In this document: positions 15,987 through 29,989 of the stretch, one piece after another
Numbering within the stretch: position 1 is the first letter of the stretch
Layout of the letters: each line of letters opens with the position of its first letter
Virus record (IMG/VR): IMGVR_UViG_3300025099_000004
Span: 1-56,902 of that record
Source of the DNA: a virus
Lineage: Duplodnaviria; Caudoviricetes
Length of the DNA stretch: 56,902 nucleotides
Direction: 5' to 3' (one strand)
Notes under the pieces: generated by a model
What the model was told of the DNA's origin: nothing
The model's database searches: none
What the model saw: only the letters and a program-made list of their open reading frames with translations
Position numbers and translations under genes: made by a program

Positions 15987-16694
15987 TTATTTCTCCAATC
16001 TTAATGCCAACCATGACACAGGAAACAATCCTTTCATGTTATTGCATATTCTATTTGCTACTAGTCTAGTTTCGTATTGTGTATCACCTGCACATCTAAG
16101 ATTGCACATGTCAGCAAAGGCGTCAAGGCTACCTGACCAGTACCATTCAGTCATGGTGCTTTGTGGCAGTACCATGCGTGCTTGCTCTGGTGCTACTCCA
16201 TTACGCACAAGAGTTTTATATGTCTCAAGTAACCATTCAGATATTTCTATAACATGACCATCCATGTTCCCAGAACCAAGTATGGCAGTATTGTACGGTG
16301 AGTCTTCTATAGTAGACAAGTCTATAACACCTTCGCTACCCTGCTTCTTGTCAATACTACGGCCTCTCCATTTATCAGGGTAGTAGTAAGTTGGTTTATC
16401 GTCTACATACCTACGGCTTATCTCATTCCAACGTAGGAACTTATGCTTCACTAACTGTCGAGCTACAAAGATAGGAGCCTTTACATGAAAGGATGCAAAG
16501 CAATGACCAAAGGGTGAGGTGTGTTTGTGTTCTGCTAAGTAGTGGATTAACTTACTATCCTTATCCTTCAAGATATACTGATCTGTTTCACTGTCATGGT
16601 CATGCCATGTAGATACTTTACCAAAGGATACACGTGCCGCATTAACTACAGACAGGTCACTACCCATGTGATCTATATATGTTACTTTAATCAT
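15987..16694 (-). CDS. thyX: Flavin-dependent thymidylate synthase
   Basis: VVNAARVS, H.SPF, ARQLVKH...WNEISRRY, EQARMVLP. Confidence 0.95.
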   Translation of the reverse strand: MIKVTYIDHMGSDLSVVNAARVSFGKVSTWHDHDSETDQYILKDKDSKLIHYLAEHKHTSPFGHCFASFHVKAPIFVARQLVKHKFLRWNEISRRYVDDKPTYYYPDKWRGRSIDKKQGSEGVIDLSTIEDSPYNTAILGSGNMDGHVIEISEWLLETYKTLVRNGVAPEQARMVLPQSTMTEWYWSGSLDAFADMCNLRCAGDTQYETRLVANRICNNMKGLFPVSWLALRLEK

Positions 16695-17241
16695 CTGTAA
16701 TCTCCTTTAGTATTTCTATTGCCTGTTCTTCTGTCAGTTTAAACCACTCACCATTGTCATGCTTGTTCCAAGGGTGTGCAGTTTTAAGTGCTGCCATTAT
16801 GTGTGCTTTCTTTTCTGCTACGTTACGATCATCAAAGTGTACTGAGTACACCAGCTTATAATCTCGCATAGGTGAACTTGTCTGGTATCCACTGAGCCTG
16901 TCCTCTGCGTCAAGTGCCTTACCTATCTTGACCCACTCAGGCCATGCGCTATTTACAATAGCATATACATATCCTTCTTTTATTATGTCATAGTTTTTTA
17001 AAGAACCAAACGCTAGATCACCAAAAGACTTATACGTTCCAGACTTATGAAGTGGATGTGACTTTGGTATGTACTTACCATTGACATACATCCTTTGTGG
17101 ATTTCTTTTTTGCTGAGTGGTTCTGTTGTTTTCACGATGACACGTAATACATCTGTACACATACATTTCCTTGTGATATTTACGCCAGTTTTCACCTACT
17201 GTTAATTCAGTGTCACAACTTATACAACTATGTGTTGTCAT
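16687..17241 (-). CDS. GIY-YIG-superfamily (T5orf172/MUG113-like) protein with N-terminal zinc finger
   Basis: CISC...CITC; GYVY...WVKIG...RL..YQT..P...E...H...GEWF. Confidence 0.75.
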   Translation of the reverse strand: MTTHSCISCDTELTVGENWRKYHKEMYVYRCITCHRENNRTTQQKRNPQRMYVNGKYIPKSHPLHKSGTYKSFGDLAFGSLKNYDIIKEGYVYAIVNSAWPEWVKIGKALDAEDRLSGYQTSSPMRDYKLVYSVHFDDRNVAEKKAHIMAALKTAHPWNKHDNGEWFKLTEEQAIEILKEITDD

Positions 17242-19255: not shown

Positions 19256-20359
19256 TTACTCGTTACCACTCGATTGTACACGAACGTTTCTCTGTGTCAA
19301 GGCATTATTTGCAGCATAGTACGTATGTTTCATGTATGGTTTCACAGAAGACACATGATTGTGTCCTGTCACTGACATAAGTTGACCTATTGGTACACCC
19401 TTATCAATCATCTGTGTTACCCCTGTCCTACGTAAGTCCATAAGTCGTAGTTCCTCTGGCAGTTTAGCCAGCCTCATTACCCTACGTCCTACCTTTGACA
19501 GACGTTCCATTGCATACGGTTGGTACTCACCCATCACTGGCCTTGGATGAGGTGCTACGTAAGGTTGGAATCCAAACTGTTCCTTCTGATCAGACAACAT
19601 GTCAGTTAGTTCTTCTGATATAGGAAGCTCTATGGTAGCCCTACGTTTGCTTTGTTCTAATTTGAGTACCCTACCAGCCAAATCAAGGTTACCCCACTGT
19701 AACGTCCTCATATCGCCCAGACGCTGACACCACTCGTATGCCATCTGTACTATCAAGCCAATACTTCTGTACTCATAGTCGCTGTACGAATAATCAAGAA
19801 ACCTGACAACATCTTCATGTCTCCACACTATCTTACGTTGCGGTGTGCTATACCTTTCGATCTTAGACCAAGGGTTCTGATATGTATGCTCCATCTTAAT
19901 CGCATAGTTGTACACCCTGCTGGCACAGGTAGCTGCATGGTTAGCAAAGCTGATGCCACGCTTGACCCACTCCTCATACGTAGCCTTTGCCATCTTTGAT
20001 GTCACCAACTCGTACTTACGTGTGCCTAAACTTTGGTGGAGAACCGTAAGGAAATATCTGTAATCCACTTTAGTATTAGGACGTAACATATTGAAATCAT
20101 TAGATTGATAGTACAAGTTAATGAGATCAGTAACCCTGCTGCTTGACTTTATTTGTACAACCTTTGCCAACTCATCACGATACGCATCAATGGCATCGTT
20201 ATGTACCTTGACAATTTGTCGCACCTGTTTGAGATCAGAACCACATTCTTCTCGTACAACTACTTCCTCATCTACAAGAAACTGTGGTGGGTTGAAGCGG
20301 TAGGAGATGTCACCCTTAGATGACACCCTTTCCTGCACATATCTAGGTAACTTTGGCAT
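19256..20359 (-). CDS. int: Tyrosine recombinase / integrase
   Basis: QRLGD (R), DLRRT (R), GH and PY catalytic residues; N-terminal LPRYV arm-binding-like region. Confidence 0.88.
   Translation of the reverse strand: MPKLPRYVQERVSSKGDISYRFNPPQFLVDEEVVVREECGSDLKQVRQIVKVHNDAIDAYRDELAKVVQIKSSSRVTDLINLYYQSNDFNMLRPNTKVDYRYFLTVLHQSLGTRKYELVTSKMAKATYEEWVKRGISFANHAATCASRVYNYAIKMEHTYQNPWSKIERYSTPQRKIVWRHEDVVRFLDYSYSDYEYRSIGLIVQMAYEWCQRLGDMRTLQWGNLDLAGRVLKLEQSKRRATIELPISEELTDMLSDQKEQFGFQPYVAPHPRPVMGEYQPYAMERLSKVGRRVMRLAKLPEELRLMDLRRTGVTQMIDKGVPIGQLMSVTGHNHVSSVKPYMKHTYYAANNALTQRNVRVQSSGNE
19273..19300 (-). promoter_or_regulatory. Sigma70-type promoter for primase/helicase, inside the 3' end of int
   Basis: TTGACA-N16-TACAAT. 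Confidence 0.6.
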
Positions 20360-20546
20360 TTGACACCTCACGATTACACCATTGTTTTAGACGATTTACT
20401 GCATCTAATCTTCGATGAACACTTCTGTCTGAAGGATGTTCAATGTGAAGGTCTGCTAGATGCTCGACCATATGATCGATAGCTACTTGAAGTACATTCA
20501 TCTCTTCCGATGAAAGGTCTAAAGAATAAGCATTTAAATCTGTCAT
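20343..20546 (-). CDS. Hypothetical protein
   Basis: ORF abuts the DUF932 stop and overlaps the int start. Confidence 0.6.
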   Translation of the reverse strand: MTDLNAYSLDLSSEEMNVLQVAIDHMVEHLADLHIEHPSDRSVHRRLDAVNRLKQWCNREVSNAKVT

Positions 20547-22988: not shown

Positions 22989-23264
22989 TTAATCCTCGCA
23001 ATTACATTCCATTTCATCTGAAATTTCTTGATACAACTGAGGAAAGGCTGCACGTAACTGCCACTCAGCACCATCAATAAGCTTCATGCTATACACACTA
23101 AGGTCATAAGACTCATGTAGTTCAAAGTCACATGTCCTAATAGTTTTTATAACTTTCTTTAAGTGGGCAACTTGCATTGGCAGTAGATTGTTTGCCGCTT
23201 CATTGCGTGCTGCGTCACGTTCATCACGTGCAATCTCCCACGGCTGTCTGGTATCTTTAGTCAT
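22989..23264 (-). CDS. Hypothetical protein (likely start MTKDTRQ)
   Basis: AAGGAG RBS upstream of 23264. Confidence 0.6.
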   Translation of the reverse strand: MTKDTRQPWEIARDERDAARNEAANNLLPMQVAHLKKVIKTIRTCDFELHESYDLSVYSMKLIDGAEWQLRAAFPQLYQEISDEMECNCED

Positions 23265-23385
23265 GTGTTGGTACTCCTTTTGATTTAGCATATGCAATAC
23301 ATATACTTTTGTTGTGTGATATGATGACAACTTTACCATTGCCATCATACACTGTGTACTTGCTTTTATTCTGCATCAGTACCAT
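23257..23385 (-). CDS. Small hypothetical protein (42 aa, ...YTVYDGNGKVVIISHNK...), not in ORF track
   Basis: Hand-translated; overlaps both neighbours in operon fashion. Confidence 0.45.
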   Translation of the reverse strand: MVLMQNKSKYTVYDGNGKVVIISHNKSICIAYAKSKGVPTHD

Positions 23386-23587
23386 AACTTTGTATTTTTT
23401 CCCTTAGTTCTACGCTACTGTGCAGTAACTTAGTTACGTCTACAAGATAAGTTGTATCACTAGATGATAATTTGTCAACCCCTTCATCGTCAGAGACATA
23501 AAAGTAATCACCGTATTCAAGGTTAAGTTTACATTCCGAAATGATAAAGTCTACCTGTGCTTTATTTACTCTGAGTATATACTCCAT
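23366..23587 (-). CDS. Hypothetical protein
   Basis: ORF with AGGAG RBS. Confidence 0.6.
   Translation of the reverse strand: MEYILRVNKAQVDFIISECKLNLEYGDYFYVSDDEGVDKLSSSDTTYLVDVTKLLHSSVELREKIQSYGTDAE
23451..23478 (-). promoter_or_regulatory. Candidate sigma70-type promoter
   Basis: TTGACA-N16-TACAAC(T). Confidence 0.45.
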
Positions 23588-23591
23588 GTAT

Positions 23592-23930
23592 TTAAGCTCC
23601 TAACTTTTTCTCAAGTTCTTTAACTTGTGTCATTAATACTTTGTATTGCTTAATTAATTTACCACGTGTTCCGCTTCTCTTAGCTGGTATAAGCCCCTTG
23701 TTTATTAGGACTGCTCTACGATAAGATACACGATGCACATACTCATTCAAGTCAGAAGCAATTTGCTCCATAGTTTTATTGGCATCGTTCTCGACAATGT
23801 AATCGTCCAACACTGCATAGTTATAGGTAAACTTATCTGCCATCTTCATGTGGAAGGTATGGTTGACATACAACTCAGGGTGAGTTGACTTAACTACAGG
23901 GCGATTAGTGATTTTGATTTTGATAGTCAT
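23592..23930 (-). CDS. Hypothetical protein, possible HTH
   Basis: KTMEQIASDLNEYVHRVSYR helix pattern; AAGGAG RBS. Confidence 0.6.
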   Translation of the reverse strand: MTIKIKITNRPVVKSTHPELYVNHTFHMKMADKFTYNYAVLDDYIVENDANKTMEQIASDLNEYVHRVSYRRAVLINKGLIPAKRSGTRGKLIKQYKVLMTQVKELEKKLGA

Positions 23931-23955
23931 AGCGTGGGTTCTCCTTTGTGCTATA

Positions 23956-24378
23956 TTAAACGTTAAGTTCTAGGGTCGTGTCTTCAAGTTCGTGCCAGCC
24001 AGTAGGCATACACACAAATGCTATGTTGTCTAGTAGATTAACAACAATGTCACCAACTGACAGGCTAGGGTGCTTCATCAGATGGGTAGTTTTAATAGGG
24101 TTGTCTTGCTCTATGCCATTGCCCTCAGCAAATATAGCCTCAAGTCTGGTACTCTCAAGACTTTTCTCACTACCTGCATACTGCATAAACATAGTAGGTT
24201 GATACAAACTGTACACCATTCCTGTATGTACAATTTTTTCTGGTGTAGCATTGTCTTTACCCATCATTATACTCAGGCTAAAGTATGCATCTGCCATAGG
24301 TTTATTACGTCCTGTGTTTATTATCTCTATCAGTTCATCATCAAGAGGACGTTGATATATTAAATATGAATGTAACAT
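23956..24378 (-). CDS. YodL-like domain protein
   Basis: Y.IYQ near the N-terminus; HPSLSVGDIVV...FVCMPTGW at the C-terminus. Confidence 0.6.
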   Translation of the reverse strand: MLHSYLIYQRPLDDELIEIINTGRNKPMADAYFSLSIMMGKDNATPEKIVHTGMVYSLYQPTMFMQYAGSEKSLESTRLEAIFAEGNGIEQDNPIKTTHLMKHPSLSVGDIVVNLLDNIAFVCMPTGWHELEDTTLELNV

Positions 24379-24515
24379 TAGGCTACCTTTCTACGTAGAC
24401 TGTGTTTCGTTTTACGTGCAAGCTTTCGCTCACGTTTCCAATCATCTTTCTTAGGTCCAACGTTGGACTTAGGTTTCTTCGTAATCTTAACGAAGTTAGT
24501 CATCTCGTAGCGCAT
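24378..24515 (-). CDS. Small basic protein (45 aa, MRYEMTNFVKITKKPKSNVGPKK...), not in ORF track
   Basis: Hand-translated; AGGAG RBS; TAATG coupling. Confidence 0.65.
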   Translation of the reverse strand: MRYEMTNFVKITKKPKSNVGPKKDDWKRERKLARKTKHSLRRKVA

Positions 24516-24648
24516 TGTACTTCTCCTGCTTACGGTTACGTTTGGCTTTGTTACCCTTCTTAGGGGGTACTACCTGTGGCGATTTGCGTAGTTGTAGCAT
24601 AGCCTTTGCCACAGGATTTACAATACCTATTGTTGGTTTGATTTTCAT
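24496..24648 (-). CDS. Small basic NPVAK-type protein (50 aa), ArfA-like pattern, not in ORF track
   Basis: MKIKPTIGIVNPVAKAMLQLRKSPQVVPPKKGNKAKRNRKQEKYNALRDD; ATGA-coupled to the upstream ORF. Confidence 0.65.
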   Translation of the reverse strand: MKIKPTIGIVNPVAKAMLQLRKSPQVVPPKKGNKAKRNRKQEKYNALRDD

Positions 24649-24779
24649 TTCTGCACCTTAATATATTCACGAGTTATCTTATGCTTAAAGAAAAGCGTCT
24701 CACTGTCCTCATACATAAACATGTAAGAGTTTTTTATAGCTTCAAAAGCTTCTTCAAATTTCTGTTTCACATTCATCAT
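24645..24779 (-). CDS. Small hypothetical protein (44 aa, ...YMFMYEDSETLFFKHKITREYI), not in ORF track
   Basis: Hand-translated; AAGGAG RBS. Confidence 0.6.
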   Translation of the reverse strand: MMNVKQKFEEAFEAIKNSYMFMYEDSETLFFKHKITREYIKVQK

Positions 24780-25023
24780 GCCACAAATCTCCTTTGTATA
24801 CTTTATAGTCTATCCTACTTTGTGCCTCTTGTAAGGCATCAATAAGTTCTGTCAAGGTTGAGCCATATCTTATGATAGGCATGAAAGCATTTGGCTCACC
24901 TATACCTACCTCTTGAAACTTAGTTGCTAGTGGGTCAGGGTCTCTGTGTTGTGCAATTGATACCTTAACCCCATTGTGAGTTACATAAATGTAATTAAAA
25001 TCTATCTCAATTAAATTATCCAT
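24754..25023 (-). CDS. Hypothetical early protein
   Basis: Overlapping ORF in the early operon; start uncertain (25035 or 25023). Confidence 0.6.
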   Translation of the reverse strand: MDNLIEIDFNYIYVTHNGVKVSIAQHRDPDPLATKFQEVGIGEPNAFMPIIRYGSTLTELIDALQEAQSRIDYKVYKGDLWHDECETEI

Positions 25024-25669
25024 GTTCAAATCCATATGTTATACATTCTACGTGAAACCTAGACACTACGTCACCAGTATCTAAGGCACGATTGGCACGA
25101 TTGCCAGCGACATATTCACACCAGCTATTCCACCAGTATTCTGCCGTATTTGTTTGTTCCATTGGATCTGTAACCATCTTGTGACAGAGGGTCACATATC
25201 CTGCTATCTTTCTACGGATAGTACCTTCGGATGCCTTTAAGTTTATCTTCACTACACTGTCAGATATATCCAACCTCTTGAGGTTATGACTGTCCAGACA
25301 GGCTGTATTAAAGCCAAGGCATTGAGCAAAGAAACCAGCCTTGACCATGCCCATGTTGGGAACATTGACAAACAGTCGTATGATTTCTGAACAACCCATA
25401 GGTGTATCATATCCAAACTTGTCCACTATGTCGTACACTTTGCCATACAAGTAATCGGCATTGTCTACTAGGTACTTGTACCCATCAGACTTTTTGCCCC
25501 ACAAACAGTCGGCATCGTAGCCATCGTTCTGCACCTTGACCATGCTACCTCGTACAGTAGACAGGCCAGCTTGTATCGTAAGCAGTACGAACAGGCCAGT
25601 GTTTACCAAGGCATCTGGACCACGCCATCTGACAAAGGCTTTGATTTCACTTACATCACGTTGATACAT
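25016..25669 (-). CDS. HhH-GPD superfamily DNA glycosylase-like protein (Ogg-like)
   Basis: VPNMGMVKAGFFAQCLGFNTACLDSHNLKRL matches the HhH + DxH pattern of Ogg-type enzymes. Confidence 0.6.
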   Translation of the reverse strand: MYQRDVSEIKAFVRWRGPDALVNTGLFVLLTIQAGLSTVRGSMVKVQNDGYDADCLWGKKSDGYKYLVDNADYLYGKVYDIVDKFGYDTPMGCSEIIRLFVNVPNMGMVKAGFFAQCLGFNTACLDSHNLKRLDISDSVVKINLKASEGTIRRKIAGYVTLCHKMVTDPMEQTNTAEYWWNSWCEYVAGNRANRALDTGDVVSRFHVECITYGFEHG

Positions 25670-25727
25670 TTTTTGTTCCCTCTTGTAGCCATTTTATAAC
25701 TCCGTTATAGTTAGGTCCAATGTTGGA

Positions 25728-25919
25728 CTAAGCAAATGCCTCGTCCCATTCGGCAGGTGTAATACCTGTCTTTAAGAACTCACGTTCATCTGCAGTCAGG
25801 TTAGGCATCACCTCTTGTATTGATGCACCTTCCATCCACAATGTAATCTGCTTTTCAGATACATCAATTTCCATTTCATGTGACTTACCACTCAACATTG
25901 ATTTTTTACCAACTAACAT
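25728..25919 (-). CDS. Conserved-looking small phage protein (PNLTADEREFLKTGITPAEW)
   Basis: ORF with AAGGA RBS. Confidence 0.75.
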   Translation of the reverse strand: MLVGKKSMLSGKSHEMEIDVSEKQITLWMEGASIQEVMPNLTADEREFLKTGITPAEWDEAFA

Positions 25920-25940
25920 TCTGTATGTTTCCTTGTTTGT

Positions 25941-26010
25941 TACTGTCTATACATGTTATATAAACACTTTCACTAAAGTATCAAGTGTTTATATAACTGT
26001 AAGACAAGTA
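25941..26010. other. Long imperfect hairpin with TCACTAAAG apex
   Basis: 15-bp perfect arms GTTATATAAACACTT (25955-25969) and AAGTGTTTATATAAC (25983-25997), with further outer pairing. Confidence 0.8.
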
Positions 26011-26012
26011 GT

Positions 26013-26228
26013 TTAATTTACGTCACGCCATCCTGTGTCTTGACGCCATTCAATTAAGTTACCGACTTGATCATAAACTTCGTTTACTTTAGGTCCAACG
26101 TTGGACTTGGCTTGTTGCTGTTTAGCAAGGTCAAGTCGAGCTTTCAGCTCAATACGTCTGTCTGCTTTCGGCGTAGCATAGACTTGTCGTAGTCTAGCAG
26201 AGCTAGAATTATGTAAATAATATTTCAT
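26013..26228 (-). CDS. Hypothetical early protein (contains KSNVGP)
   Basis: GGAG RBS before MKYYLH. Confidence 0.6.
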   Translation of the reverse strand: MKYYLHNSSSARLRQVYATPKADRRIELKARLDLAKQQQAKSNVGPKVNEVYDQVGNLIEWRQDTGWRDVN

Positions 26229-26229
26229 A

Positions 26230-26373
26230 TTATACTCCAAATACATAGCAAAGTTTTGCTATTGAGAAACCAATAATTGCTACATCAATTATAATAATTG
26301 ACCATGCAACAAAGCGAATTAAATCATGGTAAGTACCATCAGCTTGGCACAAGTATTTAACTACGTTAAACAT
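26230..26373 (-). CDS. Small membrane protein (47 aa), not in ORF track
   Basis: MFNVVKYLCQADGTYHDLIRFVAWSIIIIDVAIIGFSIAKLCYVFGV; one hydrophobic span. Confidence 0.5.
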   Translation of the reverse strand: MFNVVKYLCQADGTYHDLIRFVAWSIIIIDVAIIGFSIAKLCYVFGV

Positions 26374-26560
26374 CATCATCATCGTCCTCTTCTAGATTTC
26401 CAAAAAGAGTAAGACACTGAAGTGTGTGACCTTCTTTACCTATTTTTGTGAAGTGATCGACAATTCTATCAATACTATCACCTTCTTCCATATCTATGGT
26501 TGTAGGTGACGTATTGCCATAGTGATTAGATGTCAGATACATTGTTAATTTATATTTCAT
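26366..26560 (-). CDS. Hypothetical early protein
   Basis: GGGAG RBS; acidic C-terminus. Confidence 0.6.
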   Translation of the reverse strand: MKYKLTMYLTSNHYGNTSPTTIDMEEGDSIDRIVDHFTKIGKEGHTLQCLTLFGNLEEDDDDDV

Positions 26561-26574
26561 TTTGTAATCTCCCT

Positions 26575-26772
26575 TTACGCCAACGATACCTTAACGACAT
26601 CGCCTTGCGGATTGTACATAACCGACACAGTACGATGCACATTTCTTGCACCCATCCATGTATTCCACCATGCATCTGCATCAGATTTTGTATCACAAAA
26701 TAAACTATTGCAATGTAAATCTGTCGTGCTTTCTTCCGCATAACAAGAATGGGTAGATTTTAATTCCCACAT
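26575..26772 (-). CDS. Hypothetical early protein
   Basis: AAGG RBS; fills the gap between neighbours. Confidence 0.55.
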   Translation of the reverse strand: MWELKSTHSCYAEESTTDLHCNSLFCDTKSDADAWWNTWMGARNVHRTVSVMYNPQGDVVKVSLA

Positions 26773-26802
26773 GATAATAACCTTTCAGGTTAAAGTGACA
26801 GC

Positions 26803-27384
26803 TTACGCTGCCACCTTTGTTTCTTCTGCTTCAGCTTCGCTGACTGTATCCACTTCCATTAGCATCTCTGCTATGTCGAGTAGGTCTATGTTATTTGCTT
26901 TGCAAACTGCAACCAGCTTGTCAAAGACAAGTTCTTTGGTGACAGTAACCGTAGGTTTCTCAGTAGGTCCAACGTTGGACTTGACTTCAGCTTCGCTGTT
27001 AGTACCTTCGGTATCTTCAGCCTTTGGCTTGCTAGGCTTCATAGCTCTCTGCAAAGCAGTGAGAGAAGTAAATCCTTTCTTGCTTTTAGCAACAAACTTT
27101 CTAGCATCAACTTCGTTGTTGATAAACCATTCAGCTTCGCTGCGGCGTCTCTTGTCCACTAAGTGGAGATGAACTTCACGAAGCCTTTGGCTTGTGATTT
27201 TACCACCATTGACTTCGGCTCTCAATTCTACCATCAGCTTTCCAAGCCGTGTGTCGAATCCATCAGCTTTGGTTGACTTGTTGAAACGTCTCTTATCACC
27301 TTTGGTGATTGTTTCCCATTCCTCTGCTAAGGCTTTGCCTTGATCTTCCAGAGTTGTGATATTTTGAATTTGAAGATTTGCCAT
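26803..27384 (-). CDS. First early-arm protein, function unknown (contains KSNVGP)
   Basis: AAAGGA RBS; 193 aa. Confidence 0.8.
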   Translation of the reverse strand: MANLQIQNITTLEDQGKALAEEWETITKGDKRRFNKSTKADGFDTRLGKLMVELRAEVNGGKITSQRLREVHLHLVDKRRRSEAEWFINNEVDARKFVAKSKKGFTSLTALQRAMKPSKPKAEDTEGTNSEAEVKSNVGPTEKPTVTVTKELVFDKLVAVCKANNIDLLDIAEMLMEVDTVSEAEAEETKVAA

Positions 27385-27401
27385 TTGGTTGGTCCTTTTA
27401 T

Positions 27402-27484
27402 CTATAATCTGTTTTTATATGAGAAACGTATATCTCTCACTAAAGGTGAGATATACTTTATCATTAAAAACTAATAGATTATAG
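27402..27484. other. Long imperfect hairpin with TCACTAAAG apex
   Basis: Nested arms CTATAATCT/AGATTATAG, GTTTTTA/TAAAAAC and GTATATCTC/GAGATATAC. Confidence 0.8.
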
Positions 27485-28181
27485 TATAAGTTTTCGATTT
27501 GGTTCTCACATGTGATCCTCTGCGCCTGTCGTTTCACAGGTGACTGCAAAAATATATTTCATATATATTTTGAAGTTCGTGCGCTAAACTCATGCGAGGC
27601 TTCGATTTGCACAAACATCTGAAAAGTGTGACAAATATGTCATATACTTTGTATATGGGTTAAGTCCAACATTGGACCACCAAATCTGTTTGGCAGAGCT
27701 GTGTACGGCTTGTAGGATCATGCATCTGCCATCAGAGATGGTGGGTATGGTTTTGTGCATCGTCCTTTGAAATACACCCTTGGTGTAAAAAACGGCCTGT
27801 TATCTCACTCTAAAGAGTGGCAACTGATTGCATAACAGTTGTCGTAGACAAGTAAGTGATTGAAAGTAAACATATCTTTGATATGATGGTGGAGTGAAGC
27901 ATGGTTTTTGCTGTCACCGCAGGTATGCAAGGCATAATGTGTAGGCATGCGCAGGGTGAACGCAGCGGTAGGCGAGGGCCACACGCCCCCACGTGGATAG
28001 TATATACATACAAGCACACAGATCTGGAAAATAGGGTGTTAACTACTTTACACATATGCATAAACGTGGTCACACAGGACACATAACGTGATCACAAACG
28101 GTTTGGCAAATGTGTACAGTGAATACTAGTAACTTTATGTTACAGTATAGTAACATTTAGTGTAACAATTGAAATTAACAC

Positions 28182-28210
28182 TTGACATGGGGTATTATGT
28201 GTGTAAAACT
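28182..28210 (+). promoter_or_regulatory. Candidate late-arm sigma70-type promoter
   Basis: TTGACA-N16-TAAAACT. Confidence 0.55.
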
Positions 28211-28400
28211 ATGTATATAGTATATAGCAATAACCATATAAGTGTTACATGTACAGTGATACACTAACATATATTAATACTTACTTATAATTATACTTAA
28301 ATATCCTTAACATATAAGTAAAACACGTACAGTGATACATGTATATGGAGTAATCCGTAGATAAATATTGCCGTTAGGCAAGAATTTGTACAAATAAGTA

Positions 28401-28429
28401 TTGACAATGGCAAAGAAATCAGTAAAACT
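28401..28429 (+). promoter_or_regulatory. Candidate sigma70-type promoter
   Basis: TTGACA-N16-TAAAACT(AT), same architecture as 28182 and 42366. Confidence 0.5.
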
Positions 28430-28610
28430 ATACACAGACAATGTTCTTGAAGAGTTCTATAAGCATTTAATAGACAATAATCTAAAGAACTTACATATTC
28501 CCCATAGTGATGTCTTCTATGTAAAGGCTGCAGTGGATGCCCACTACGGTAAATCATTTACTTTAAAGCATGTAGAGTGGGCTATGCGTAAAGAAGGGTG
28601 GACAGATTGA
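28407..28610 (+). CDS. Hypothetical protein, first ORF of the late arm
   Basis: ORF MAKKSVKLY...; weak RBS. Confidence 0.55.
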   Translation: MAKKSVKLYTDNVLEEFYKHLIDNNLKNLHIPHSDVFYVKAAVDAHYGKSFTLKHVEWAMRKEGWTD

Positions 28611-28885
28611 GTATTACGTACCGTGGAGAAACGTTTAGTGGATATAACAAACCCAAGCGTACTCCCAAGCACCCTACAAAGTCTCACGTAGTTCTTGCCA
28701 AAGAGGGCAGTACAATAAAAATGATACGCTTTGGTGAACAAGGCGCAAAGACTGCAGGTAAGCCTAAGTCAGGCGAATCAGATAAAATGAAAAAGAAACG
28801 TGCAAGTTTTAAAGCTCGTCATCGTAAGAATATTAAGCGTGGTAAGTTAAGTGCAGCTTATTGGGCAGATAAAGTTAAATGGTAA
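28598..28885 (+). CDS. Conserved basic viral protein (RFG...RASFKARH...SAAYWA.K.KW)
   Basis: Motif typical of a widespread small phage protein family; may start at TTG 28607. Confidence 0.7.
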   Translation: MDRLSITYRGETFSGYNKPKRTPKHPTKSHVVLAKEGSTIKMIRFGEQGAKTAGKPKSGESDKMKKKRASFKARHRKNIKRGKLSAAYWADKVKW

Positions 28886-28897
28886 AAGGATAGACCA

Positions 28898-29989
28898 ATG
28901 GGAATAGCAACTAAAGCAGCAAAGAAAACACTTAAAGAAAATTTAATGAAAAGAATTAAAGCTGCGCAGAAAAATCTAGGAAAAAATCCTGATAGTAAAG
29001 CTGCAAAAGATAAACTAAAAGATTTAAGAGTAGAGGCAGAAGCAGAACTTGCACCTACACCTAAGTTTAAAGCAGATCGTAAGGTTGATCCTGCTATTAT
29101 GGCTGCAATAAAGAAACAAGAAGAAAAAGGTGCAAATATAAAAGCAACAGGAGATAAACCTACTGCACAAAAAGCTAGAGAAGCTCTTGGTGTAGATAAA
29201 GCTAGAAAAGCTACAAAAAGCACAACACGTGTATCTAATGCAAAAGGTAATCTTACTGCAGCACAAATGAAAACTATTGATGATGCCCCAACTCCAACTT
29301 CATTAACAAGTATTCAAGCAAGAATGATTGAGGATATTAATAAATTAAAAAAACTTACACCTGCAGAACGTAAGACACGTATAGCAAATGTAAGAAAGCG
29401 TGTAGCAGATCGTAAAGATAAATTACGTGCAGCAGCAAAAGTTAAACCTAAAAAAGAAGATACTCGTAGGAAGTCAGAAAAACCACAAAGCTCTGAAGAA
29501 AGACAAAGAGCATCAAGTGGTAGAGTTTCAAGCACTACTACTACACAAAAAAATAAAAAAGAAGGTGTAGGTTCTATGGTTGCTTATACTAGTTTATCAC
29601 GTGGTAAAGCTATTACTAAAGCAGGTATAGATTTACGTGCTGGTAAAATTACCAAAGCACAGCACGATAAAATTGTAAAAGAAATAAATCGTTTAAATGC
29701 TAAAGAAGCACCAAGACGAGCAGGAGATGGACCTAAAAGAAAAAAACAACCATACAAACCAAAAAGCCCTTTCAATAAAGGCGGTATGCCAATGGTAATG
29801 AAGGACGGTAAAAAAGTACCTGCCTTTGCCGCAGATGGTATAGGCAAAATGATGCAAGGTGGAATGGCTAAGAAAAATAAAAAAGCTACACCGGGGTATG
29901 CATATGGTGGAATGACTACATCTAAACCACGTACAGGAAATACAGACTATCGTATGGGTGGTATGTTTATGAAAAGTGGTAAAAAGTAA
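28898..29989 (+). CDS. Lys/Ala/Arg-rich protein, possible DNA-condensing/core protein with C-terminal xxGG repeats
   Basis: Very basic composition; FNKGG, MMQGG, YAYGG, YRMGG. Confidence 0.6.
   Translation: MGIATKAAKKTLKENLMKRIKAAQKNLGKNPDSKAAKDKLKDLRVEAEAELAPTPKFKADRKVDPAIMAAIKKQEEKGANIKATGDKPTAQKAREALGVDKARKATKSTTRVSNAKGNLTAAQMKTIDDAPTPTSLTSIQARMIEDINKLKKLTPAERKTRIANVRKRVADRKDKLRAAAKVKPKKEDTRRKSEKPQSSEERQRASSGRVSSTTTTQKNKKEGVGSMVAYTSLSRGKAITKAGIDLRAGKITKAQHDKIVKEINRLNAKEAPRRAGDGPKRKKQPYKPKSPFNKGGMPMVMKDGKKVPAFAADGIGKMMQGGMAKKNKKATPGYAYGGMTTSKPRTGNTDYRMGGMFMKSGKK

Follow-up and report, generated by a model that had tools for sequence, protein, structure and literature searches.

The virus record IMGVR_UViG_3300025099_000004 (Duplodnaviria; Caudoviricetes), analyzed here at its full length of 56,902 bases and referred to below as the window, carries five copies of the 14-base palindrome GTCCAAYRTTGGAC, all of them inside 24455-27677 (3.2 kb). 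We put at about 60% the probability that in this marine phage these palindromes serve as double-stranded DNA operators for a protein of its own, the first early protein, which is the 193-amino-acid (aa) product of the gene at 26803..27384 on the minus strand. Judged by its Pfam content, the genome is of the HMO-2011 type, and since the window is a complete record with terminal repeats (a 127-base repeat), five is the copy number of the whole 56.9-kb genome. A leftward operon runs from 27384 to about 7355 and starts with about 20 small uncharacterized genes, so that the palindromes mark the first 3.2 kb of this early operon together with the noncoding DNA ahead of it.

The exact sequence GTCCAACGTTGGAC starts at 24455, 26093, and 26967, and near-copies start at 25715 (GTCCAATGTTGGAC) and at 27664 (GTCCAACATTGGAC). 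Dinucleotide-preserving shuffles of the window, taken as the null, predict 0.00 exact matches and 0.10 matches with up to two mismatches, and allowing three mismatches adds two unrelated-looking matches (16426 and 19486) against 1.52 expected. This confinement to the early region, with the same positions and mismatches, had been reported in a first-pass annotation of the window and is confirmed here, as are the plus-strand TAG...T flanks common to four of the five copies and the use of identical codons, AAG TCC AAC GTT GGA CCT (KSNVGP), in three open reading frames (ORFs), at 24378-24515, 26013-26246, and 26803-27384.

We number the sites i to v starting from the noncoding side. Site i (27664..27677, GTCCAACATTGGAC) lies about 280 nucleotides (nt) upstream of the first early gene; it falls in a 56-aa ORF (27590-27760) whose reading frame is not kept in relatives, and the earlier description of this copy as noncoding is therefore reasonable. 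Site ii (26967..26980), a perfect palindrome, encodes K135 to P140 in the disordered linker of the first early protein, while site iii (26093..26106), also perfect, lies in the 77-aa ORF 26013-26246. At site iv (25715..25728, GTCCAATGTTGGAC), the same register gives TAG, which serves, as previously noted, as the stop codon of the 63-aa gene 25728..25919 (minus strand; phrog_20898); this site precedes by 46 nt the ATG of a conserved 217-aa early gene (25016..25669, minus strand). Site v (24455..24468), again perfect, is hosted by the gene of a 45-aa basic protein (24378..24515, minus strand). The first-pass annotation had considered the copy at 27664 inverted, and we examined the idea that the flanks follow the direction of transcription, with this copy facing the rightward operon. 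It was discarded, as the orthologue of this copy in one relative (L158) is oriented like the other copies and flank orientation is thus not conserved.

The exact 14-mer forms clusters of two to five copies in many IMG/VR contigs, and five records searched whole contain five to eight copies each, always inside 3-4 kb. When 80 loci were fetched via the conserved 217-aa protein, 45 were found to carry one to seven copies of GTCC[AG]AYRT[CT]GGAC, among them all 42 loci whose version of this protein shares at least 59% identity with that of the window, and the other 35 carry none. The copies recur at orthologous places. These are the stretch ahead of the first gene, the linker which that gene encodes (or, alternatively, the DNA directly behind the gene), the DNA past the stop codon of the 63-aa gene, and the coding sequence for the 45-aa basic protein. 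The orthologue of site i was found in 65 distinct sequences from upstream of the first gene (51 after reduction of near-duplicates) and is flanked by hairpins whose pairing survives through compensatory changes; that of site iv stands 6 to 10 nt ahead of the Shine-Dalgarno sequence of the 217-aa gene; and at site v the standard site is present in 77 of 89 homologues of the 45-aa gene, with the lineage's own variant in 3 more. At site ii, the linker of the homologues reads SNVG, SDVG, or PNVG, matching the site type of the respective genome. Selection is deemed to act on the nucleotides and not on the KSNVGP peptide, because relatives keep the 14 bases while the adjoining codons change (KSNVGP, VSNVGQ, ESNVGQ, and KSDVGP) and because the palindromes of distant lineages differ. 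The earlier proposal of selection at the DNA level is thereby upheld, the palindrome being retained where adjoining codons or even the whole peptide change. In the 80,374-base record G005, behind locus L160, the same variant of the 14-mer occurs at 24688 and again at 79902, 55,214 bases apart, and this record may extend beyond a single genome length of a 55-kb phage.

What ties the sites to the first early protein is the covariation of its residue 109 with site positions 5/10. In the window this residue is a threonine (codon 27058..27060, minus strand) in the context ..GFTSL[T/S]ALQ.., at the start of helix 108-115; threonine accompanies A:T and serine accompanies G:C at positions 5/10. In 29 first-gene products from loci fetched via a different gene, threonine is found in all 22 cases with A:T sites and serine in all 7 cases in which the sites are G:C or mixed. 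With 80 more loci, added by a pattern search for the first early protein, 107 proteins could be compared, and the rule holds in 103 of them (73 with threonine and A:T, 30 with serine and G:C-containing sites, 2 with serine and A:T, and 2 with threonine and other sites). On a tree built without the helix columns, the residue changes 11 times and the site type changes 13 times; supported branches yield 7 independent pairs (11 on all branches), of which 6.8 go in the same direction and 0 in the opposite one (sign test, P of approximately 0.016). A methyl group of threonine facing that of thymine, and lost in serine when T is replaced by C, would be a chemically sensible reading of this covariation.

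When all columns of eight conserved early proteins were scanned without bias against site type, the residue 109 column ranked first, with 5 errors in 113 loci. The best columns of the other proteins made 14 errors in 73 loci (217 aa), 11 in 65 (63 aa), 12 in 71 (50 aa), and 11 in 75 (112 aa). The best column of the 77-aa protein made 5 errors in 38 loci but catches only four of nine switched loci, and that of the 45-aa protein (11 errors in 86) is the residue encoded by the site itself. A 140-aa protein made one error and a 169-aa protein made none, but these were found in only 24 loci (4 switched) and 10 loci (3 switched), respectively, and for three others the loci were too few for a scan. 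Among the other early proteins for which at least 38 loci were available, none has a column that follows the site nearly as closely. This includes the 112-aa protein encoded at 23592-23930, just past the array, which the first-pass annotation had listed among candidate binders: it is conserved in 52 of the 56 relatives with enough sequence and has no family match, and none of its columns tracks site type. It may regulate the next gene block. Here, the product of 26803-27384, which the first-pass annotation had treated only as an ORF hosting one copy, emerges from sequence comparison and structure prediction as the best candidate for the binder.

A second stretch of the same protein may read the outer bases. 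Residues K78 to R81 (KRRR; codons 27142..27153, minus strand) open helix 78-89, and in the lineage with CCCC..GGGG outer bases (L267/L268, with CCCCAACGTTGGGG sites) IPDQRRSEA replaces VDKRRRSEA. This coincidence of KRRR becoming DQRR with the change of outer bases involves one lineage and two near-identical loci and is suggestive only.

More distant lineages carry other palindromes at the same places. Loci L267/L268 have five copies of CCCCAACGTTGGGG occupying all the orthologous places, and L211 has five copies of GTCGCA-CT-TGCGAC, the fifth of which lies inside the 45-aa gene with its center inverted and the peptide TSQVRQ. Phage HMO-2011 itself carries five copies of GTCCG-ACAG-CGGAC, one with an inverted center. 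TGTCAC-N3-GTGACA (L233, five copies), TGTAAC-N3-GTTACA (L234, six copies), GTAATC-N3-GATTAC (L239, nine copies), and GTCTGAA-C-TTCAGAC (L232, six copies) have A-rich flanks and stand mostly before Shine-Dalgarno sequences. Each genome has uniform arms and a free center, as would be expected if a coevolving dimer read the two half-sites.

Two AlphaFold models of the 193-aa protein, made with 15 and 47 sequences (mean predicted local distance difference test [pLDDT] scores of 73 and 78), agree on a confident helical domain at about residues 9 to 118, a disordered linker that contains KSNVGP (pLDDT of <50 at residues 119 to 147 in one model and 123 to 142 in the other), and two C-terminal helices; the KRRR residues lie inside the confidently folded domain, with pLDDT values of >90. 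The protein is predicted to form a homodimer, with a score of 0.79 compared to 0.00 for the best of three controls; among proteins of solved structure, 20 of 30 pairs of one chain and 1 of 23 single chains score at least as high. The homodimer runs share at least 77% of their contacts, with partner pLDDT values of at least 73, and the predicted interface comprises residues 12 to 26, 43 to 54, 70 to 80, and 148 to 179, leaving helices 81-118 free. The covariation and the predicted homodimer lend support to the idea, already put forward in the first-pass annotation, of an early-gene operator array for a dimeric protein, and from them we infer direct binding. When both models were compared with 48,161 chains using VIA-align, the DNA-binding domain of KorB on its operator (1r71_A) ranked first for each (Z score of 5.4, root mean square deviation of 3.3, and 87 aligned residues for one model; 4.9, 3.4, and 87 for the second).

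The protein belongs to a family of at least 3,000 sequence clusters in public metagenomes, the best 120 of which are nameless or annotated as "hypothetical protein" and have no Pfam domain. Likewise, no Pfam family matched the 193-aa protein at an E value of ≤0.001, and a protein atlas search returned only unnamed viral clusters. A pattern scan of 185,579 prokaryote species genomes gave no relative, so that this gene provides neither a host or prophage lead nor evidence of lysogeny.

In the mechanism that we propose, the 193-aa protein would bind the palindrome as a symmetric homodimer, each subunit reading one GTCCAA half-site. Helix 108-115, and with it T109, would come close to base pair 5/10, and the outer bases would probably be approached by the basic N-terminal end of helix 78-89. 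Of the five sites, one would act before the early operon, where a promoter-like extended -10 block adjoins it, and four within the transcribed early block, where they occupy intergenic gaps or disordered or basic parts of proteins, including the linker of the putative regulator itself. As the protein accumulates, it would fill the array, and occupancy of the array would most likely close the early block by promoter occlusion combined with an elongation block, making the system an autoregulated timer. The promoter-like block is a TG-n-A/T-rich stretch found at a nearly constant 21 to 25 nt after site i and resembles an extended -10 element; on our reading, this would place the center of site i about 41 bp before the inferred start point. 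A roadblock with negative feedback fits better than activation, because four of the five sites are inside the operon and one is in the regulator's own gene, and, given binding, we give roughly even odds to our preferred outcome, in which the early block is shut off by autoregulation. Two promoter-based explanations of the motif were considered and rejected. The right half-site TTGGAC was not retained as a -35 element, since the fixed distance to the Shine-Dalgarno sequence leaves no room for a -35/-10 pair, and an N4-type hairpin promoter was dropped, as Pfam annotation revealed no RNA polymerase gene in the window.

Several observations weigh against operators read by the first early protein. 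The pattern by which the 80 additional loci were collected permits only threonine or serine at the key column, so that other residues could not appear there, and the rule is broken in four loci (L168, L255, L284, and L291). A site centered near -41 could occlude a promoter or could equally suit an activator. The fold match to KorB is weak, as Z scores below 8 can reflect a common helical arrangement, and given so low a score we treat it as a lead and not as a finding; moreover, Foldseek gave no match in the PDB at an E value of ≤0.001, a profile search of PDB chain sequences gave 0 matches at an E value of ≤10, and the Pfam KorB family matched 1 of 15 family members, with an E value of 0.12. 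In the distant lineages with other palindromes, no homologue of the first early protein was detected with a hidden Markov model, and hhalign of this protein against the first ORF of L239 returned a probability of 7%. In addition, every copy lies in or just before one transcription unit, many of them just before ribosome-binding sites, and the half-changed sites comprise 15 G.T and 3 A.C pairs on the sense strand.

The last two points speak for the foremost alternative, in which the palindrome is a hairpin of the early mRNA, with a 5-bp stem and a 4-nt loop, bound by an arginine-rich helix of the first early protein and controlling antitermination, processing, or translation downstream, in the manner of lambda N/boxB or of a translational repressor. 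Such a hairpin would suit the intergenic copies, which stand 6 to 25 nt ahead of Shine-Dalgarno sequences; the placement of site i between the promoter-like block and the first gene, as with nutL in lambda; and the KRRRSEA.WF stretch of the protein. However, the skew toward G.T, although it is what a wobble-tolerant RNA hairpin predicts, is not decisive, because these cases cluster in close relatives and other, nonpairing changes occur. In 412 unique sites, arm positions 1 to 4 are broken in 3, while positions 5 and 6 tolerate A.A (9 sites), C.T (5 sites), and T.T (2 sites), which would leave an RNA stem of only 4 bp. The center occurs in both orientations on the sense strand and is inverted in one of five copies both in L211 and in HMO-2011. 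Recognition of RNA hairpins usually shows the opposite of a fixed stem and a variable loop, so that fixed arms around a variable and invertible center favor double-stranded DNA; the predicted two-fold dimer, whose symmetry matches that of the DNA site, points the same way. We therefore prefer DNA over RNA as the target at roughly four to one and consider the hairpin explanation, taken as a whole, unlikely.

A reader of host origin is considerably less plausible. Under this explanation, the sites would be recognized by a host protein or a host defense system (as a decoy, an entry or stop signal, or a restriction-related element) and not by a phage protein. The center of the palindrome might suggest this: in 218 sites it is CG, TG, or CA and never TA, and whole lineages lack CG, AACGTT having become AATGTT or AACATT but never AATATT. 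This loss of CG may reflect pressure against a CG-containing target, possibly one of the host, or may be due to deamination. Against a host reader, close relatives show repeated switches of site type that accompany changes in a residue of a phage protein, and related phages carry entirely different palindromes. Nothing in the analysis favors the DNA-entry, packaging, or decoy roles that the first-pass annotation had also proposed. Least probable of all, we think, is that the copies are boundaries of gene cassettes, that is, recombination repeats that shuffle small early genes, are homogenized by gene conversion, and have no dedicated binder: copies do lie at gene borders in many relatives, with varying numbers of small ORFs between them, all copies of a genome change together, and a strain variant lacks 540 nt inside the array, but this variant (26235 to 26776) does not end at a palindrome (the nearest copies being at 26093 and 26967), the copies within proteins are kept at orthologous codons across wide divergence, and cassette boundaries predict no link to residue 109 of one protein, yet this link is seen.

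If the palindromes are operators of the first early protein, a further and more tentative step, about which we remain doubtful, is that protein and sites constitute a rapidly evolving recognition code by which coinfecting HMO-2011-type phages are divided into immunity groups. A resident or first-arriving phage would then silence the early genes of an incoming relative with the same sites. Such pressure would drive the switches, from T109 with A:T to S109 with G:C at least seven times and to new palindromes elsewhere, and would explain sites within coding sequence, including the regulator's own gene.

Downstream of the small early genes, the leftward operon encodes an integrase, a DnaB-like helicase, ThyX, a family A DNA polymerase, endonuclease I, ribonucleotide reductase, and MazG. 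The tyrosine integrase gene (19256-20371) lies in this replication block, and a gene with a T5orf172 domain (16687-17241) lies between the helicase and ThyX genes. A rightward operon starting at about 28400 encodes the terminase, an SU10-like portal, and capsid and tail proteins. Between the two divergent operons, about 1 kb of noncoding DNA (27385..28400), which holds site i, is strongly conserved in relatives, and several of its hairpins keep their pairing through compensatory changes. It could hold the early promoter, an origin, a structured RNA, or the ends of the genome. It matches no Rfam family and contains no tRNA; scanning 23000-29000 and the window for Rfam families and tRNAs gave a single chance-level match and no tRNA. 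A consensus promoter and terminator scan gave 27 promoter-like matches against 16.4 expected, none of them decisive, and two of its "terminators" are palindromes of the array, on the noncoding strand.

A conserved promoter-like element (TTGATA, 18 nt, TATAAC; core GAAAGTGTTTATATAAC) is found on the minus strand at about 25950-25990, ahead of the 63-aa gene; many relatives have a copy of the palindrome about 30 nt downstream of this element. At the far end of the array, the ORFs 24378-24515 (45 aa) and 24496-24648 (50 aa) overlap, are very basic, and are conserved across lineages; a likeness of the 50-aa ORF to ArfA was dropped, as Pfam gave no support. Four metatranscriptome runs of one seawater sample contain only short contigs, 90 to 99% like the region. 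Some of these contigs join 26235 to 26776 and thus skip 540 nt (three small ORFs), which is strain-level variation in gene content within the array, with break points away from the palindromes. The contigs are uninformative on transcription or processing, since neither the strand nor the starts and ends of transcripts can be read from them and such libraries may contain DNA.

HMO-2011-type phages are among the most abundant phage types of the ocean. They infect cultured SAR116 and Roseobacter hosts, and our literature search found no description of such an array, nor of early-gene control in phages of this type, nor any match to the 14-mer string. On the basis of sequence comparison and predicted structure, the array would be novel as a palindromic, dimer-read set of operators confined to the early block, partly placed in coding sequence, and served by an uncharacterized regulator family. 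The candidate regulator represents an unstudied and very abundant family, and the sites are most likely its docking sites. Roseobacter phages CRP-1 and CRP-345 have three copies of GTCCAAYGTTGGAC in the first 6 kb searched and a threonine at the key column of gp01, and Puniceispirillum phage HMO-2011 carries a related variant site. Since cultured isolates thus carry the array together with a gp01 homologue, the prediction can be tested at the bench. A rule linking one residue to one base pair, with many natural switches, offers a direct test of protein-DNA recognition and a way into the timing of early genes and possibly into how related phages compete.

Among known systems, the PeSL cassettes of T4-type phages likewise place repeated short elements between small variable early genes. 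However, these are promoter-plus-hairpin units thought to mediate shuffling, and we know of no binding protein that covaries with them. The 14- to 17-bp operators of Cro and cI in lambdoid phages, 434 among them, resemble our sites in size and symmetry, and their reader, like the one proposed here, is a helical dimer that makes base-specific contacts through the beginning of a helix, but they come in threes at two promoters instead of being spread through an operon or coding sequence. In lambda, the first gene of the early operon encodes the arginine-rich protein N, and the 14- to 15-nt inverted repeat boxB stands between promoter and gene and recurs in the transcript. BoxB is read via its loop by a small disordered protein, whereas here the arms are fixed, the center is variable and invertible, and the protein is folded and predicted to be dimeric, with KRRR at residues 78 to 81 in the folded domain and not in an N-terminal arginine-rich motif.

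KorB and its operator OB on plasmid RK2 (PDB 1r71; PMC11790492) share with the array a palindromic operator present in many copies on one replicon; an all-helical DNA-binding domain followed by a linker and a C-terminal dimerizing part would be a further likeness, given the predicted structure of the 193-aa protein. KorB is described there as a ParB-family CTPase that slides on DNA. The 193-aa protein, instead, is predicted to comprise a single helical domain that a linker joins to a pair of C-terminal helices, and no ParB-type N-terminal/sulfiredoxin-like CTPase domain was detected by Pfam, even when the weak matches of 15 family members were included. The likeness to KorB-OB is thus in site symmetry and perhaps in fold.

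The closest functional parallel may be the operators and stoperators of cluster A mycobacteriophages (L5 gp71 and the TipsytheTRex repressor), which are asymmetric 13-mers bound by a two-domain monomer in an orientation-dependent manner, with more than 20 sites per genome spread genome-wide at the promoter and in short intergenic gaps (PMC9283540). In those phages, the bound repressor halts both initiation and elongation of transcription. A gp71-type repressor (helix-turn-helix plus stoperator domain) is not among the fold matches listed for the 193-aa protein, nor was one returned by the profile search of PDB chains described above. Both systems repeat one short site at a promoter and within transcription units (here one upstream and four inside the operon, with most copies in the relatives placed in intergenic gaps), and both involve binding by the phage's own regulator, here proposed, and specificities that diverge among related phages. 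The sites studied here differ in being 14-bp palindromes whose centers occur in both orientations, in their predicted homodimeric reader, and in their number and placement, with five sites confined to 3.2 kb and several of them within coding sequence. By analogy, then, the array would work like a stoperator array while departing from it in site symmetry, in the dimeric state of the predicted reader, and in orientation dependence.

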